This document shows, in pieces, positions 4,532 to 58,254 of a DNA stretch of 64,000 nucleotides (the first letter of the stretch is position 1; each line of letters starts with the position of its first letter). Under the pieces are notes generated by a model, which was not told the origin of the DNA, did no database searches, and saw nothing but the letters and a program-made list of their open reading frames with translations. Origin of the DNA: Escherichia phage vB_EcoM_Schickermooser; sequence record NC_048196.1; one strand, written 5' to 3'. A program made the translations under genes and the position numbers.

Positions 4532-4740
4532 TGGTTACTATTACATTGACAGTTACACAAGAGCAAGCAGAAGAATTACGTGATGCAGTGGCATACATGG
4601 GACGCTCTTATTATATGCCTTATAAATCACAAGATGTTTTTGCTACAGCCATTGAGAAAGCTTTAAACAAATATCGAGAAACTCATGCCGTTCCTAAAGT
4701 AGCAGCAGAAGAGTTTGGCACTTGGCACGAAGTTAACTAA
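4531..4740 (+). CDS. hypothetical protein
   Basis: ATG 4531 overlaps upstream stop (TAATG); GGAGGTGA SD. Confidence 0.5.
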   Translation: MVTITLTVTQEQAEELRDAVAYMGRSYYMPYKSQDVFATAIEKALNKYRETHAVPKVAAEEFGTWHEVN

Positions 4741-49448: not shown

Positions 49449-49853
49449 TTATTGAAGTTTAAGTGAACCACGAAGACGTTTCTCTTGCTGATCACGGATA
49501 TATTGTGGAACCTCGTGAATTGAATCATTACCGTGCCTATTTTCAACAATTAAAGAGATAACTTGATAACCAAACTCTTCAGCAAGAGCTAGATAAGGTT
49601 TAAGTTCTTTCTCTGTGGTTGAAGTATTAGAAACAATAATCTTGTTAAGATTAGATGCCATAGCATCACGAACAATACCCTGACACCATGCGTGTGCTTT
49701 ACCTACATTTTCTGGCTTCCAATCGTAAACACCACTCTCTGTGTAATGATATTGATCTGCCTCACAGATAGGCCAATAACCTTCAGAAATAATTTCTGCT
49801 ACTGTAGATTTACCAGCACCTGAAACGCCACGTAAAATGATAAGTTGTTTCAT
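49449..49853 (-). CDS. P-loop kinase (polynucleotide-kinase-like)
   Basis: Walker A GVSGAGKST; 134 aa; adjacent to ligase and phosphoesterase. Confidence 0.55.
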   Translation of the reverse strand: MKQLIILRGVSGAGKSTVAEIISEGYWPICEADQYHYTESGVYDWKPENVGKAHAWCQGIVRDAMASNLNKIIVSNTSTTEKELKPYLALAEEFGYQVISLIVENRHGNDSIHEVPQYIRDQQEKRLRGSLKLQ

Positions 49854-50786
49854 TTATCCTCCAAAAAAGTTTTCGATTTTTTCACGTCGCTCTTGCTGAT
49901 TTAAAGCAGCCCATTGAGTCTTCGTAAAATTATTTCGAATCCATTCTAACAAAGCGTAATATTCTTCGTCAACCATTTGTTTGGCATTTTTTGGATTATC
50001 CCAAATCAGATCCCACTTTTTATCTCCACCGCGCATAAGAAACTTCTTAGTAAGATAGTGTGGTGATTTAATTTTTAAAAGTAAGTTGAACGGATAGTTT
50101 GTTTCACGAACTACAAACCCTTCGTGTTTACAATGTTTAGACATTTCAACAACATCTGAAAACTTAACCATTGGATGAACTTCAGGACGCTTAAATTTGG
50201 TGACAGAAGCAATTCCATCAAGAGCACCTTCAGGTAACATAAAACTTGTCCCATCAGGATTTTGAATTCTGGCACCAATTAAGTATGCACCTGGTTCTTC
50301 TTCGACAATATGCGGATCAGAAGGATCACAGATTTCAAAAAGGAAAGTTGCTTTTGCACTCTCTGTCCATTTGATGAAATGTTCTATGTCATCACACTCT
50401 GAAACAATACGATTCTTTGCAATACTTGCAAAATCTGATTCAAGGCTTCCTGTTGTCGATACAATAAGTTGACCTTTATATACACCTACAGAGGCCATAA
50501 AACCATTTACTTTACGAACCACATCTACAAGTTCATCCAATGGTAGATCTGTGCCATTCTCAAAACGATTAAAAATCTTAGTGAAAGGCCAAATAACAAC
50601 ATTGTCATCAGCATCAACAACGATTCCGCGACATTCTAGAAGACGAGAATCAATGCTCCATAAGTTATCCCAGAAAACTTTGTTCTTATACTTAAGAACA
50701 GATAGACCAGAATACTCTCCTTCTTTATATGTTTTCTTATGAACTAAACCTTTTTCAACCAAATCGTCGCAATTAAATTTAGTCAC
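49854..50786 (-). CDS. RNA-ligase-like nucleotidyltransferase
   Basis: motif I KVNGFM, motif IV EGFVVRE, motif V LLKIK. Confidence 0.5.
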   Translation of the reverse strand: MTKFNCDDLVEKGLVHKKTYKEGEYSGLSVLKYKNKVFWDNLWSIDSRLLECRGIVVDADDNVVIWPFTKIFNRFENGTDLPLDELVDVVRKVNGFMASVGVYKGQLIVSTTGSLESDFASIAKNRIVSECDDIEHFIKWTESAKATFLFEICDPSDPHIVEEEPGAYLIGARIQNPDGTSFMLPEGALDGIASVTKFKRPEVHPMVKFSDVVEMSKHCKHEGFVVRETNYPFNLLLKIKSPHYLTKKFLMRGGDKKWDLIWDNPKNAKQMVDEEYYALLEWIRNNFTKTQWAALNQQERREKIENFFGG

Positions 50787-50787
50787 A

Positions 50788-51339
50788 TTACTCTCCTTTG
50801 ATTATTTTGTGATGGTCTACAGTCACGATATCTCGTTTACTCATCATAGAAATTATCTCATCAAAATGCAAGATTTTTCCGTGTGCATCCCAACCCACAT
50901 CTAACATTTTACCATAAGCTTCATCAGGGAAAGATCCGTGGGAATGCCCGTGTAGCATGATTGATCCACGACCTTGTTTATTCCAGGAGGCCATAGGGTA
51001 ATGACTTAAGACGAAGAACAGCTTCTGATATTTCACTTCGTCATAATACACCACTTCCCCATACTCTGCAAGCACTTCTCGGTGTTTGCTGTAGTCATGG
51101 TTCCCAACACAGTAGGTGATATCTCCTTGGAGACGAGAAGCAATTTTACGGGTATCTTCTTCAGTTCCGAAACAGAAGTCGCCCAAATGCCACATCTTAA
51201 CACCAGGAGTAGTAGCACATTTGTTCCATGCTTCGATCAAGGCTTCTGTCATGTGGTCCATATCTTCCCACGGACGATATTCAGGAGCAAACTCTCGAAT
51301 ACGTTTATGCATAAAATGCAAATCGCTTGTAATAAACAT
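50788..51339 (-). CDS. calcineurin-like metallophosphoesterase
   Basis: SDLHF, LGDFCFG, GNHD and HGHSH motifs. Confidence 0.65.
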   Translation of the reverse strand: MFITSDLHFMHKRIREFAPEYRPWEDMDHMTEALIEAWNKCATTPGVKMWHLGDFCFGTEEDTRKIASRLQGDITYCVGNHDYSKHREVLAEYGEVVYYDEVKYQKLFFVLSHYPMASWNKQGRGSIMLHGHSHGSFPDEAYGKMLDVGWDAHGKILHFDEIISMMSKRDIVTVDHHKIIKGE

Positions 51340-55451: not shown

Positions 55452-55700
55452 ATGTCTCTATTAGAAAAACACGTGTTTGAAGATGGTAACGGCAATGCAG
55501 TTTTTCTTTTCCATCCAGAAAAATACACATCTGAAAACAATGGTACAACTTCTATTGTAATCACTAAAGATGTTAAAGTTATTGATTTCTTGGCTCTGAT
55601 GCGAGAGATGGATCTTGAAATTAATACTTTTAACGCAGAAGCTTTGGTTGTTGCTCTTCTGGAAAAGAAAGATAGTGAAGAAGTAGCAGAATATGCTTAA
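55452..55700 (+). CDS. hypothetical protein
   Basis: ATG 55452 after TTAGGAGG. Confidence 0.5.
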   Translation: MSLLEKHVFEDGNGNAVFLFHPEKYTSENNGTTSIVITKDVKVIDFLALMREMDLEINTFNAEALVVALLEKKDSEEVAEYA

Positions 55701-55707
55701 ATAACTA

Positions 55708-55737
55708 TTGACAAACGTATCCTTCATATGTTAGGAT
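55708..55737 (+). promoter_or_regulatory. sigma70-like promoter candidate (TTGACA-N18-TAGGAT)
   Basis: shares the cTATTGACA ... TAG..T architecture seen at 56295, 57264 and 63426. Confidence 0.45.
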
Positions 55738-55750
55738 ACGTTCATCAAGT

Positions 55751-55940
55751 GTGGTAACAGGGTCGTTGACTTTTGTTAAGAGGGGCTTGCACTGCGGTAG
55801 TGTTAGAGACTACTTCTTCAGAGGTTAGCTACCAAAGAGGAAAAGGAATAGTCTCGGCTCAAGAACTTTTACGCTGAAAGTTGGGCTTGGTCTTAGAGAA
55901 TGTAGCGGTTCTCTACAATCGTCAGCGTCTCTGTTACCAC
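55751..55940 (+). ncRNA. candidate structured RNA flanked by 10-bp inverted repeat
   Basis: GTGGTAACAG at 55751 pairs with CTGTTACCAC at 55931; internal stems GAGACTA/TAGTCTC and TGTAG/CTACA; no ORF. Confidence 0.3.
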
Positions 55941-55946
55941 ATTTAT

Positions 55947-56021
55947 GGCCCTGTAGCTCAATGGGAGAGCTGTCGGCTCATAACCGATAGGTAGCTGGAT
56001 CGAAACCAGCCAGGGCCACCA
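55947..56021 (+). tRNA. tRNA-Met (anticodon CAT; could be Ile2/lysidine type)
   Basis: manual cloverleaf: acceptor GGCCCTG/CAGGGCC, anticodon loop CTCATAA, encoded CCA. Confidence 0.6.
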
Positions 56022-56023
56022 AA

Positions 56024-56098
56024 GTCTTTATGGTGTAATGGATAGCACAGGAGTCTTCTAAACTCTTAGTCAAGGTTCGATTCCTTGTAAAGACACCA
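56024..56098 (+). tRNA. tRNA-Arg (anticodon TCT)
   Basis: acceptor GTCTTTA/TAAAGAC, anticodon loop CTTCTAA, T-loop TTCGATT, CCA. Confidence 0.6.
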
Positions 56099-56100
56099 GA

Positions 56101-56286
56101 ACATTTTAACATGAATTAGCTCAAGTGATTTGAACCCACTACTGATCATGGTGGCAGAGAATGAGGCAAGTATGTCAGACATTATAAACAAAGGCCACGG
56201 TTATATTAGAAGACATAAATGCTCGAAGAGCACCGTTCGTGGAGAACGGGGGTTGGTGGAGTCACCATTCATGGTAAAATGTTTTA
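56101..56286 (+). ncRNA. candidate structured RNA flanked by 17-bp near-perfect inverted repeat
   Basis: AACATTTTAACATGAAT at 56101 pairs with ATTCATGGTAAAATGTT at 56270 (one mismatch). Confidence 0.3.
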
Positions 56287-56294
56287 AAAAACTA

Positions 56295-56324
56295 TTGACA
56301 ACAAGTATTATTTTATGTTAGATT
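56295..56324 (+). promoter_or_regulatory. sigma70-like promoter candidate (TTGACA-N18-TAGATT)
   Basis: TTGACA 56295-56300; immediately upstream of tRNA-Ser. Confidence 0.45.
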
Positions 56325-56332
56325 ATAAGTAT

Positions 56333-56423
56333 GGAAGGGCAAATCGACGTGGCGACGAAAACGGTCTTGAAAACCGCCGAGCTTTAAAGAGCCTTGGGAG
56401 TTCGACTCTCCCTCCTTCCGCCA
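56333..56423 (+). tRNA. tRNA-Ser (anticodon TGA), type II
   Basis: acceptor GGAAGGG/TCCTTCC, loop CTTGAAA, long variable arm, CCA. Confidence 0.55.
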
Positions 56424-56428
56424 GGTTA

Positions 56429-56514
56429 GGTAGATTGGTGAAATGGTAGCCACGACAGTTTGCTAAACTGTAGTCGGAAACGGCGTGTAGGTTCGAGTCC
56501 TACATCTACCGCCA
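56429..56514 (+). tRNA. tRNA-Ser (anticodon GCT), type II
   Basis: acceptor GGTAGAT/ATCTACC, loop TTGCTAA, long variable arm, CCA. Confidence 0.6.
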
Positions 56515-56516
56515 AG

Positions 56517-56625
56517 TTCTTTTTAATGTAGCTTACTTTAATAGAGTAAACTTTCGGCAAATGGCCCCCACCATCTTACCGATAACTCATAGTTAGTGGT
56601 GCGAACACTGGCTATTTTAAAAAGA
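56517..56625 (+). ncRNA. candidate structured element between tRNAs
   Basis: TTCTTTTTAA at 56517 versus TTAAAAAGAA at 56616 inverted repeat; internal hairpins. Confidence 0.2.
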
Positions 56626-56643
56626 ATTTAAATACTAGCATTT

Positions 56644-56731
56644 AGGTGAGTTAATTCCGTAGGGGTAGCGGGGCAGACTGTAAATCTGTTATCATTGCGA
56701 TTCGGGTGGTTCGACTCCATCACTCACCACC
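56644..56731 (+). tRNA. tRNA-Tyr (anticodon GTA), type II
   Basis: acceptor GGTGAGT/ACTCACC, loop CTGTAAA, long variable arm, CCA. Confidence 0.55.
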
Positions 56732-56737
56732 AAATTA

Positions 56738-56823
56738 AGATGAGTTGGCTGAATGGTTTAAGCGGCGGACTGTTAATCCGTGTTCGAAAGAACGATATAG
56801 GTTCAAATCCTATACTCATCGCC
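56738..56823 (+). tRNA. type II tRNA with apparent anticodon GTT (Asn anticodon on long-variable-arm body)
   Basis: acceptor GATGAGT/ACTCATC, anticodon stem GCGGA/TCCGT, loop CTGTTAA, variable hairpin GTTC-GAAA-GAAC, CCA. Confidence 0.45.
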
Positions 56824-56830
56824 AGAATTA

Positions 56831-56908
56831 TGGACTTGTAGAGTTAAGGTAAACCCCCCAGTCGCCAAGAGGCTTCTGGAATTGCAGGTATCGAATCCTG
56901 CCGAGTCC
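56831..56908 (+). tRNA. tRNA-like element, atypical (anticodon not assignable)
   Basis: 7-bp acceptor pairing GGACTTG/CGAGTCC and T-arm GCAGG/CCTGC with 8-nt loop; no canonical anticodon arm. Confidence 0.3.
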
Positions 56909-56914
56909 CAGCTT

Positions 56915-56989
56915 TGCTCCTATAGTATAATGGCTATTACAACGGTTTTGTAATCCGTGGATCTCTGTTCGATTCAGAGTGGGAGCACC
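56915..56989 (+). tRNA. tRNA-Thr (anticodon TGT)
   Basis: acceptor GCTCCTA/TGGGAGC, loop TTTGTAA, T-arm CTCTG-TTCGATT-CAGAG, CCA. Confidence 0.55.
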
Positions 56990-57263
56990 AACACAACATT
57001 AAGGGCACTGTGATTGATCGTCGTATCCTGTGCACAAGGTCTGTTCGAAAGACAGTGTTCTTAGTATTGTGTTGATCACAAAAAGAGTTACCTGAAACTT
57101 GACCGGAGTAGGGTTGGATGGGGCAAAAGAAGAAGCGGCTCTCCCATCGACAGCAACGAAGAATAATATTTGACTTTGGTTTTGTATTATTTTAAGTTAG
57201 CTTACCGAACGTAGGGCTAGTCACCCAATGGGATACTCGTCACTGTCCCACTCAATAAAACTA

Positions 57264-57293
57264 TTGACAACCAATAGTAAAATGTAGTATAGT
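57264..57293 (+). promoter_or_regulatory. sigma70-like promoter candidate (TTGACA-N18-TATAGT)
   Basis: TTGACA 57264-57269, TATAGT 57288-57293; upstream of tRNA-Gly. Confidence 0.5.
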
Positions 57294-57304
57294 AAAGATG
57301 TAGG

Positions 57305-57378
57305 GCGTTCTTGGTGTAGCGGTAGCATTCCGTCCTTCCAAGTCGGCGGCACGAGTTCGATCCTCGTAGAACGCTCCA
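57305..57378 (+). tRNA. tRNA-Gly (anticodon TCC)
   Basis: acceptor GCGTTCT/AGAACGC, loop CTTCCAA, T-arm ACGAG-TTCGATC-CTCGT, CCA. Confidence 0.55.
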
Positions 57379-57476
57379 AATTATTTAATAAAGGGTTGCC
57401 AGAAAACTTTCTCTTTTACTCATGGTTTTCTCCTTCTCTCACACCTCTTCTGGTTGCCCTTCATTAAATGATTTAT

Positions 57477-57552
57477 TGGTTTGTAGTGTAGTCAGGTAGC
57501 ACACGACACTTTGACTGTCGTAGGTTTGGTTCAAATCCAGACAGACCAGCCA
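57477..57552 (+). tRNA. tRNA-Gln (anticodon TTG)
   Basis: U1-A72 acceptor TGGTTTG/CAGACCA, anticodon stem CGACA/TGTCG, loop CTTTGAC, CCA. Confidence 0.55.
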
Positions 57553-57557
57553 TATAA

Positions 57558-57634
57558 CGGAATTTAGCTCAGTTTGGTAGAGCATACGCTTTGGGAGCGT
57601 AGGGTCGCAGGTTCGAATCCTGCAATTCCGACCA
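57558..57634 (+). tRNA. tRNA-Pro (anticodon TGG)
   Basis: acceptor CGGAATT/AATTCCG, loop TTTGGGA, T-arm GCAGG-TTCGAAT-CCTGC, CCA. Confidence 0.65.
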
Positions 57635-57640
57635 ATTTAA

Positions 57641-57714
57641 TGTTTCGTAGTTCAATGGTAGAACCCACGACTGATAATCGTGAGACACAAGTTCGATTCT
57701 TGTCGAAACAACCA
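57641..57714 (+). tRNA. tRNA-Ile (anticodon GAT)
   Basis: acceptor TGTTTCG/CGAAACA, anticodon stem CACGA/TCGTG, loop CTGATAA, CCA. Confidence 0.55.
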
Positions 57715-57717
57715 ATT

Positions 57718-57786
57718 TCCCGTTAGACTTACAGGATAAGAGTTCCACAGCTTATTGTGATGCTGGTTCGAATCCAGCACGGGATA
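57718..57786 (+). tRNA. tRNA-like element with non-canonical anticodon arm
   Basis: T-arm GCTGG-TTCGAAT-CCAGC and 6/7 acceptor pairing; best anticodon stem CACA/TGTG encloses a 6-nt loop; no CCA. Confidence 0.3.
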
Positions 57787-57792
57787 CATAAT

Positions 57793-57871
57793 AGCGGGAT
57801 AGAGGAGTCTGGTCGTCCTCGCCAGTTTCATATGCTGGAGATCATCGGTTCAAATCCGATTCCCGCCTCCA
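57793..57871 (+). tRNA. tRNA-Met (anticodon CAT), 1-72 mismatch (initiator-like?)
   Basis: acceptor AGCGGGA/TCCCGCC with A1-C72 mismatch, anticodon stem CCAGT/GCTGG, loop TTCATAT, T-loop TTCAAAT, CCA. Confidence 0.5.
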
Positions 57872-57984
57872 AATATCGCTTGCCAGCGGTATCTTTGAAG
57901 ACCTTGCCTGGTTCCTTCTAAGATGGAGGGGTGCGACTCCTTAACGCACAACATACTACTACTAAATACTTATCAGGAGATATC

Positions 57985-58254
57985 ATGTATACTTTAAAAG
58001 TAATTCGCAAGTTTCCTCAAGAAGAGGAAGTAAGAATTTATAACACTGTACCATTCGTAGTAAATGAAGAAGAATTCTTTTATTGCTTAGAAGATGAAGT
58101 AATTATTCAATATCATTGGGAAGGTTACGACAGACAAGATGGTGTTGTAGCTTCTGTGCTTGCTGGTGATAGAGTGTTATTCATTCACAAAACTGAATCA
58201 GCATATCTAATGAATGATAAAGGACAAACTGTTAAAGTAATTAACAGACCATAA
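57985..58254 (+). CDS. hypothetical protein
   Basis: ATG 57985 after AGGAGA; listed upstream extension runs into the tRNA region. Confidence 0.5.
   Translation: MYTLKVIRKFPQEEEVRIYNTVPFVVNEEEFFYCLEDEVIIQYHWEGYDRQDGVVASVLAGDRVLFIHKTESAYLMNDKGQTVKVINRP

Follow-up and report, generated by a model that had tools for sequence, protein, structure and literature searches.

The closest described counterparts of the RNAs considered here are the stable RNAs of phage T4, rnaC (species 1) and rnaD (species 2), which are non-coding, 119-139 nt long, encoded on the tRNA strand, abut a tRNA and have no known function. To our knowledge, RNAs lying between phage tRNAs have been overlooked since these two species were described. 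A 64,000-nt stretch of DNA from Escherichia phage vB_EcoM_Schickermooser (accession number NC_048196.1), referred to below as the window, was found to carry a tRNA cluster at positions 55700-57975 of the + strand, in which 12 tRNA genes, three near-identical sigma-70-type promoters and two tRNA-like minihelices are interleaved with six structured spacers free of open reading frames (ORFs), designated A, B, C, D1, D2 and E, and followed by a 3' tail, F. The source is a phAPEC8-like Escherichia coli myovirus (Phapecoctavirus, Stephanstirmvirinae), and the 2.27-kb cluster shares 99% identity with Escherichia phage Mt1B1_P17 and about 68 further phAPEC8-like myoviruses.

Comparison with relatives shows that selection on structure maintains at least four of the predicted spacer RNAs (A, B, D1 and D2), which are unrelated to one another in sequence; for B the structural evidence is strong, and for A, D1 and D2 it is good. 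It seems fairly likely that the spacers as a group are genes for non-coding structured RNAs of the + strand, which selection conserves and which are transcribed along with the tRNAs and then excised. These RNAs are at present unannotated or mis-annotated as hypothetical proteins; they are concrete, testable candidates for new RNA families, and recognizing them would allow about 100 deposited genomes to be annotated correctly. Element B is shared by two subfamilies, which comprise therapeutic-candidate coliphages and Salmonella phages, and the elements may help to answer the question, now 50 years old, of what role phage stable RNAs play.

Comparison with described RNAs

As in T4, the RNAs are encoded among the tRNA genes of a phage cluster, share their strand and abut tRNAs, and the paired ends and canonical T arm of the rnaC fold recur in tRNA-like 1, tRNA-like 2 and D1. 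Unlike rnaC and rnaD, however, A, B and C are larger, multi-helix and not tRNA-like, and the RNAs are interleaved among tRNAs and promoters, whereas rnaC and rnaD are placed at the distal end; stability has been demonstrated for the T4 species and is a prediction for the elements described here. No match of rnaC or rnaD to the cluster was obtained with nhmmer even at E<=100, and a covariance model of B gave no significant match on the T4 locus (best E=2.2). The likeness to the stable RNAs of the T4 cluster that had been remarked on in the first-pass annotation holds for position, strand and part of the tRNA-like anatomy; homology to rnaC/rnaD was tested and not found. By analogy, the best reading is that the elements belong with the poorly understood stable RNAs of phage tRNA operons of the rnaC/rnaD kind.

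Long-range pairing of flanking sequences is also seen in RNase III stems, such as those at the flanks of rRNA operons and at the sites of T7 early RNA, with 20-bp+ helices as in A, D1 and E, in which both strands could be cleaved together; unlike in simple RNase III processing signals, the interiors are conserved here, and B and C have shorter stems with interruptions. GOLLD and ROOL are phage-associated structured RNAs of 500-800 nt, often next to tRNA genes and of unknown function; they have no Rfam match here, and the present elements measure 85-200 nt. In E. coli, 3'ETS-leuZ and ITS-metZW are reportedly pieces that the tRNA-processing machinery cuts out of tRNA precursors and that act in trans as sponges of small RNAs (the work of Lalaouna et al. 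2015). These two are short, largely unstructured and Hfq-dependent in their base-pairing, whereas the elements here are large, highly structured and end-paired.

When 4227 Rfam models were applied, the window at the gathering threshold yielded tRNA matches only, and a permissive scan of 55600-58100 at E<=10 yielded, besides tRNAs, sub-threshold noise without any match to a T-box, riboswitch or ribozyme model. YrlA (RF02553), which has a terminal stem formed by its 5' and 3' ends plus a tRNA-mimicking domain, occurs also in phages (PMC4201824). Identity with YrlA was rejected, the RF02553 match being weak (22.8 bits against a gathering threshold of 69) and overlapping real tRNAs, with none on the spacers. 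The GNCGAA Ro-binding motif was not seen by eye in the stems, and no TROVE protein was present in the annotated ±9 kb or among the 8 Pfam-scanned proteins, no systematic search for Ro60 having been made. A search of the literature disclosed no transcriptomes or earlier descriptions of these RNAs.

Structure and conservation of the spacer elements

The elements are as follows.

55745-55946, + strand: element A, a ~200-nt 5' leader RNA of the first tRNA operon (fold and covariation)
56100-56285, + strand: element B, a 186-nt multi-helix RNA (fold and covariation)
56515-56630, + strand: element C, a ~115-nt end-paired RNA with the conserved core CUUACUUUA..AGAGUAAACUUUCGGCAGAUGG..ACCGAUA
56989-57074, + strand: element D1, with a ~21-bp stem starting inside the CCA of tRNA-Thr
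57076-57258, + strand: element D2, with the conserved hairpins GGAUGG..CCAUC and GGGAUACUCGUCACUGUCCC
57378-57474, + strand: element E, whose ~24-bp interrupted stem begins at the CCA of tRNA-Gly and stops 2 nt short of tRNA-Gln
57872-57975, + strand: element F, a 3' trailer that forms three or four short hairpins and reaches to the ribosome-binding site of the next gene downstream

Element B is built of the terminal helices P1 and P1b, a 6-bp hairpin whose 7-nt loop, CUGAUCA, is invariant, a purine-rich junction GAGAAUGAG and an invariant hairpin GGUGGAGUCACC. Homologues were found in the phiWec179 clade, Klebsiella phage 05F01, Salmonella phage 19 and Seunavirus (PVP-SE1, GAP31, FENT2, 4MG, SSE121 and three metagenome contigs); in Seunavirus, a second subfamily, B is ~70% identical and displays the invariant loops together with 1-nt indels. 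Every homologue is inside a tRNA cluster, between tRNAs, and that of Seunavirus ends 2 nt before tRNA-Leu(UAA). Covariation was evaluated on 12 distinct sequences and 41 pairs, with slid partners and 500 shuffles as controls: 95.1% of cells were paired against 34-44% with slid partners, compensatory change occurred at 15 of the 41 pairs, and the observed values were reached by none of the 500 shuffles. All six base pairs of the stem carrying the CUGAUCA loop covary.

The covariance model of B retrieves all homologues at E<1e-24 and nothing besides. A scan of 185,579 bacterial genomes with a signature pattern of B gave 13 matches, all due to chance, and the model gave none of significance (partial matches of <=12 nt, E ~7); a candidate homologue in viral contig L015 was likewise dismissed as a chance match. 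The metagenome scan returned three Seunavirus-like contigs only and no new diversity, and a search of 34 kb of rV5, tRNA cluster included, did not detect B. In Salmonella phage SSE121 an HNH endonuclease gene lies directly 3' of B (locus L006:516-1010). The motif AGUCAC(C) is present in the invariant P7 hairpin of B (56255-56266), in a conserved single-stranded part of D2 (57224-57232) and in the loop of the D1-like element of rV5 (L034 ~4545-4560, - strand), a recurrence that could reflect a shared binding motif or coincidence.

In element A, a terminal helix of 26 predicted pairs encloses four or five hairpins. The element was found only in Phapecoctavirus and the phiWec179/PsgM04F clade, where it is 80% identical and keeps 98.6% of its pairs, with nine compensatory pairs against 0-2 in slid controls. 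A boxA-like antitermination motif was discarded as a candidate, as by eye it occurs on the wrong strand only.

The stem of D1 surrounds a CCUGUGCACAAGG hairpin and a T-arm-like GUCU-GUUCGAA-AGAC. A homologue of D1 occupies the Tyr-to-Ser spacer of rV5, with compensatory changes in the stem and the common core AUCGUCGU...CUGYUCGAAA..CAGUGU. Element D2 has conserved single-stranded segments, CCGAACGUAGG and UUAGUCACC, and a homologue at the same Thr-to-Gly position in phage 05F01; the predicted structure of D1 and D2 together contains 13 compensatory pairs, every one in D2 helices. The CCUGUGCACAAGG hairpin (loop GUGCACA, palindrome GUGCAC) is found at 57024-57040 of D1 and also in a 70-nt, tRNA-like, CCA-ending RNA of 05F01 (L012:5229-5308).

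Element C recurs between the Ser and Tyr tRNAs of phiWec179, PsgM04F and Klebsiella phage 05F01. The stem of E closes a ~45-nt CU-rich loop containing the anti-Shine-Dalgarno-like CUCCUU and CACCUCUU. Element F, the least supported, is 90% identical in phiWec179. Taken over the related phages, the covariation check that had been proposed for these intervals gave compensatory changes in A, B, D1 and D2, plus a few in C.

Terminal pairing and strand

The inverted repeats noted at the ends of the spacers in the first-pass annotation are all real, and most are longer than first described.

55747-55781 / 55910-55944: repeat of A, 35 nt, 77% complementary, holding the perfect 10-mer 55751/55931
56100-56116 / 56267-56283: repeat of B, 17 nt, one mismatch
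56514-56532 / 56611-56629: repeat of C, 19 nt, 84%
56989-57011 / 57052-57074: repeat of D1, 23 nt, 83%
57378-57404 / 57448-57474: repeat of E, 27 nt, 81%

Folding energies, scored as z values against dinucleotide shuffles, were -5.6 for A, -3.8 for B, -3.0 for C, -3.2 to -3.8 for D1 and -5.7 for E. The interval 57389-57466, called hairpin-rich earlier, falls within element E (57378-57474), and the other interval so described, 56990-57260, corresponds to D1 plus D2, the latter with z=-0.6. End-pairing is well beyond that of shuffles where a spacer consists of a single element, and the end duplex of E reaches -27 kcal/mol against -4.7±2.2 in shuffles; an automated test over all inter-tRNA spacers was noisy, as ARAGORN misses tRNAs and promoters lie inside spacers. 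Relatives retain the terminal pairings of A, B, C and D1: compensatory changes are seen in B, in D1 and at one pair of C, and the terminal helix of A is simply conserved as sequence.

The closing helices of B, C, D1 and E begin at -1 to +2 relative to the CCA of the upstream tRNA, and that of A begins at the inferred transcription start; those of A, E and Seunavirus B stop 2 nt short of the next tRNA. The + strand fold is much stronger than the - strand fold for A (-76.8 against -53.7 kcal/mol), D1 and E. For B and C the comparison of minimum free energies on the two strands gave no discrimination, and the strand was taken from G-U pairs and context, G-U pairs being frequent on the + strand in B. 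The + strand G-U pairs of B and the stronger + strand folds of A, D1 and E therefore point to an RNA of the tRNA strand and not to a signal at the DNA level. A mostly continuous duplex of ~20 bp or more, as would suit RNase III, is predicted in A (16+6 bp), D1 (~21 bp) and E (~24 bp, with mismatches), and is lacking in B and C.

Such geometry lends a modest chance, well short of an even one, to the view that the spacers are purely processing scaffolds or insulators, with terminal helices that join the upstream 3' end to the downstream 5' end and offer entry sites for RNase III or RNase E, interiors that are filler, and excised RNAs that are degraded by-products. Stems reaching to 2 nt before the next tRNA from the CCA, or in A from the transcription start (A, E and Seunavirus B), agree with it, as does the terminal helix of A, which is the most conserved part of that element and nearly invariant in sequence (23 of 26 pairs never vary). 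So do the pre-Gln element of GAP31, whose outer stem resembles that of E while the interiors are unrelated, and phages PVP-SE1 and 4MG, which manage without this GAP31 module. The interiors tell otherwise: the longest invariant blocks across the two subfamilies lie inside B, whose internal helices covary, the single-stranded cores of C and D2 are conserved, and the loop of E is 100% conserved. Moreover, most tRNA pairs in the same clusters are only 2-8 nt apart and have no scaffold, so that scaffolds are not needed for processing. Of the two possibilities raised at first, novel non-coding RNAs or processing scaffolds, the latter accounts for the terminal stems but leaves the invariant loops inside B, C and D2 unexplained.

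The GAP31 RNA itself (L003:4372-4508) comprises 137 nt between tRNA-Trp and tRNA-Gln, with an internal T arm and a 21-bp terminal stem whose outer part, AAUUAUUUA / UAAGUGAUUU, is the one resembling that of E.

Other origins of the spacers

Improbable, and disfavoured here, is an origin as decayed tRNA genes or neutral spacer, that is, relics of duplication and loss in which the hairpins are leftovers or products of chance. It is true that D1, tRNA-like 1 and tRNA-like 2 retain T-arm-like and acceptor-like parts, and that tRNA content differs among relatives. Against this, compensatory changes uphold helices in A, B, D1 and D2, and B is held across subfamilies at the level of identity given above. 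None of A, B, C, D1, D2, E, F and the two tRNA-like elements gave a match to the Rfam tRNA model (RF00005) at E<=10 or an ARAGORN call, and E, tRNA-like 1 and tRNA-like 2 are 100%, 97% and 94% identical, respectively, between the Phapecoctavirus and phiWec179 clades, whose flanking genes are 65-82% identical.

Small protein-coding genes in the spacers, or a - strand micro-ORF in E, are a very unlikely explanation. In the GenBank records of WPEC and PsgM04F, A, B and D do carry hypothetical-protein annotations (PHANOTATE-style calls), and the - strand of E at 57385-57440 reads AAGGAG-N6-ATG and then 12 codons (MSKRESFLATLY and a stop), probably as the mirror image of the anti-Shine-Dalgarno-like loop. 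The ORFs overlapping the spacers are short (<=63 aa) and none is conserved, in keeping with the spacers having been called ORF-free; in A, B, C and D every frame is closed in at least one homologue, 1-nt indels occur between conserved blocks, variation tracks base-pairing and not codon periodicity, and no - strand promoter was found.

Mobile elements resembling miniature inverted-repeat transposable elements, or DNA-level signals for replication or recombination, are suggested by the terminal inverted repeats, by the presence of the GAP31 module against its absence in PVP-SE1 and 4MG, and by homing endonuclease and toxin-antitoxin insertions in the clusters of relatives, yet they merit hardly any credence. 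Only one copy of each element exists in the window and in every locus searched, none of 5,426 E. coli genomes contains B, the G-U pairs keep to one strand, and internal helices covary as expected of RNA.

Several observations also weigh against the view of the spacers as conserved, excised RNAs. The folding energies of D2 and of F (z=-1.7 to -1.9) are not significant against shuffles, and C is supported mostly by sequence conservation, with three compensatory pairs only. Elements A, E, F, tRNA-like 1 and tRNA-like 2 were found in two closely related clades only, whose flanking tRNAs are themselves 95-100% identical, and their conservation could stem partly from recent recombination. The end-paired module of GAP31 is missing in PVP-SE1 and 4MG, where the Trp-Gln gap is 2-8 nt, so that at least some end-paired modules are dispensable. 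A literature search found no paper combining Phapecoctavirus with RNA-seq.

Proposed expression and possible function

Under the favoured reading, that of structured RNAs co-transcribed with the tRNAs, three strong sigma-70-type promoters would drive three polycistronic precursors.

55703-55737, + strand: promoter P1, AACTATTGACAA, 18-nt spacer, TG-n-TAGGAT (sigma-70 match scan)
56290-56324, + strand: promoter P2 (sigma-70 match scan)
57259-57293, + strand: promoter P3, the best sigma-70 match, 11/12

The three copies of AACTATTGACAA-N-TG-n-TAnnnT are the top sigma-70 matches in the region, and the exact 12-mer box AACTATTGACAA has three occurrences in the window, all within the tRNA cluster. 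The -35 and extended -10 elements of P1, P2 and P3 are kept in the divergent phiWec179 clade, the spacer between them being variable. The start inferred from P2 falls at, or within ~2 nt of, the 5' end of tRNA-Ser(UGA). No intrinsic terminators were found between the units on the + strand. A 16-nt inverted repeat over the -35/-10 region of P1 (55708-55748) was considered as an operator and dropped, as it is not conserved in phiWec179.

Unit 1, from P1, would contain A, tRNA-Met, tRNA-Arg and B; unit 2, from P2, the two tRNA-Ser, C, tRNA-Tyr, tRNA-Asn (type II), tRNA-like 1, tRNA-Thr, D1 and D2; and unit 3, from P3, tRNA-Gly, E, tRNA-Gln, tRNA-Pro, tRNA-Ile, tRNA-like 2, tRNA-Met and F. Each spacer would be self-closed by a helix starting from the upstream CCA, or in A from the transcription start, and would be released when RNase P processes the downstream tRNA and an endonuclease cleaves behind the upstream CCA, with RNase III possibly cutting the 20-bp+ stems of A, D1 and E. 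The discrete RNAs so produced may resist exonucleases through their paired ends, by the logic that applies to rnaC and rnaD of T4, and their terminal helices may serve as processing and insulating clamps. The released RNAs could then have a trans-acting role, with a protein or RNA of the host or phage as binding partner; the invariant internal loops (CUGAUCA, GAGAAUGAG and GGUGGAGUCACC in B, the cores of C and D2, the CU-rich loop of E) argue for such a role. Transcription, cleavage sites, stability and trans function are in all cases inferred from sequence features.

Some of these features suggest candidate roles. As judged by predicted folds, mimics derived from tRNAs include tRNA-like 1, tRNA-like 2, D1 and, in B, the anticodon-arm-like hairpin. 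The modelled hairpin P3 of B resembles an anticodon arm, which suggests one such role; the CUGAUCA loop of B has the size of an anticodon loop, reads as a U33-like U plus 'GAU', and holds the palindrome UGAUCA. The two anti-Shine-Dalgarno-like motifs in the loop of E suggest another. The 6-nt palindromes in the loops of B and D1 could mediate kissing dimers; that of D1, GUGCAC, is the same as in an HIV-1 dimerisation loop. Self-assembly through kissing loops into higher-order particles is said to have been observed recently for other phage-associated RNAs.

More speculatively, and with a small likelihood only, B and perhaps D1, tRNA-like 1 and tRNA-like 2 may be anti-defence RNAs against host immunity that targets tRNAs, either by decoying or inhibiting anticodon nucleases or enzymes that modify tRNAs, or as kissing-loop particles. 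In the same joint proposal they would work beside the unusual tRNAs of the phage and its kinase, phosphatase and Rnl1 repair genes. Phage tRNA clusters are regarded as counter-measures against tRNA-cleaving bacterial defences (PMC10264068, PMC11464382).

tRNA genes and tRNA-like elements

55947-56021, + strand: tRNA-Met(CAU) (ARAGORN, Rfam)
56024-56098, + strand: tRNA-Arg(UCU) (ARAGORN, Rfam)
56333-56421, + strand: tRNA-Ser(UGA), non-canonical (below Rfam threshold; annotation of relatives)
56429-56514, + strand: tRNA-Ser(GCU) (ARAGORN)
56645-56729, + strand: tRNA-Tyr(GUA) (Rfam)
56739-56824, + strand: type-II tRNA with Asn anticodon GUU (ARAGORN, Rfam)
56832-56912, + strand: tRNA-like 1, 7-bp acceptor stem and T arm (predicted fold)
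56916-56990, + strand: tRNA-Thr(UGU) (ARAGORN, Rfam)
57305-57378, + strand: tRNA-Gly(UCC) (ARAGORN, Rfam)
57477-57714, + strand: tRNA-Gln(UUG), tRNA-Pro(UGG), tRNA-Ile(GAU) (ARAGORN, Rfam)
57718-57785, + strand: tRNA-like 2, 6-bp acceptor stem and canonical T arm (GCUGGUUCGAAUCCAGC)
57793-57871, + strand: tRNA-Met(CAU), 79 nt (ARAGORN, Rfam)

The count of twelve tRNAs given in the first-pass annotation was confirmed: ten are called by ARAGORN, the Rfam tRNA model adds Tyr(GUA) (39 bits), and the twelfth is the type-II cloverleaf of Ser(UGA), which scores 38 bits with the tRNA-Sec model, under its gathering score, and is annotated as tRNA-Ser in relatives. As for the two elements described as tRNA-like, the term is justified by the acceptor stem and T arm of each, while neither tool called them; tRNA-like 1 has no 7-nt anticodon loop and no encoded CCA, and tRNA-like 2 has an enlarged loop in the anticodon region and no CCA.

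The GUU tRNA is 86 nt long, with G73 and a long (type II) variable arm, a feature normally confined to Leu, Ser and Tyr tRNAs; it is kept in phage 05F01, PVP-SE1 and GAP31. In Seunavirus, tRNA-Lys(UUU) is 86 nt long and has an enlarged D arm, and tRNA-Leu(UAA) is short, at 75-78 nt. These unusual shapes could represent escape from anticodon nucleases or a dual Asn/Ser identity.

Genomic surroundings and related loci

The cluster lies at a strand switch, with genes upstream on the - strand and genes downstream on the + strand. The former include an RNA-repair trio at 49449-51339, 4.4 kb upstream of the cluster, which was recognized by a Pfam scan.

49449-49853, - strand: match to the AAA_33 P-loop kinase family
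49854-50786, - strand: match to T4 Rnl1-type RNA ligase (PF09511)
50788-51339, - strand: match to metallophosphoesterase

This combination of kinase, Rnl1 ligase and metallophosphoesterase resembles the Pnkp and Rnl1 heal-and-seal pathway by which T4 repairs tRNA, and in rV5 an equivalent kinase, ligase and phosphoesterase trio adjoins the tRNA cluster.

A further tRNA-like RNA of ~110 nt, here named X, is present just upstream of B in all Seunavirus loci (GAP31 L003:2884-2997) and has an acceptor stem, a T arm, a UCCA-like end and three extra hairpins. It is absent from the window and occurs also in rV5 (L034:4222-4319, - strand; nhmmer E=5.6e-7), which likewise has end-paired spacers. Judged from the loci compared, the possession of structured spacers in the tRNA cluster is general in this phage supergroup. 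In Klebsiella phage ZCKP1 the tRNA cluster contains an insertion of ~800 bp with an XRE/HigA-type antitoxin gene. Last, the GenBank record of rV5 gives a tRNA-Arg of 175 nt with a promoter feature inside it (L034:4715-4889), very likely an annotation error spanning a leader and the tRNA.

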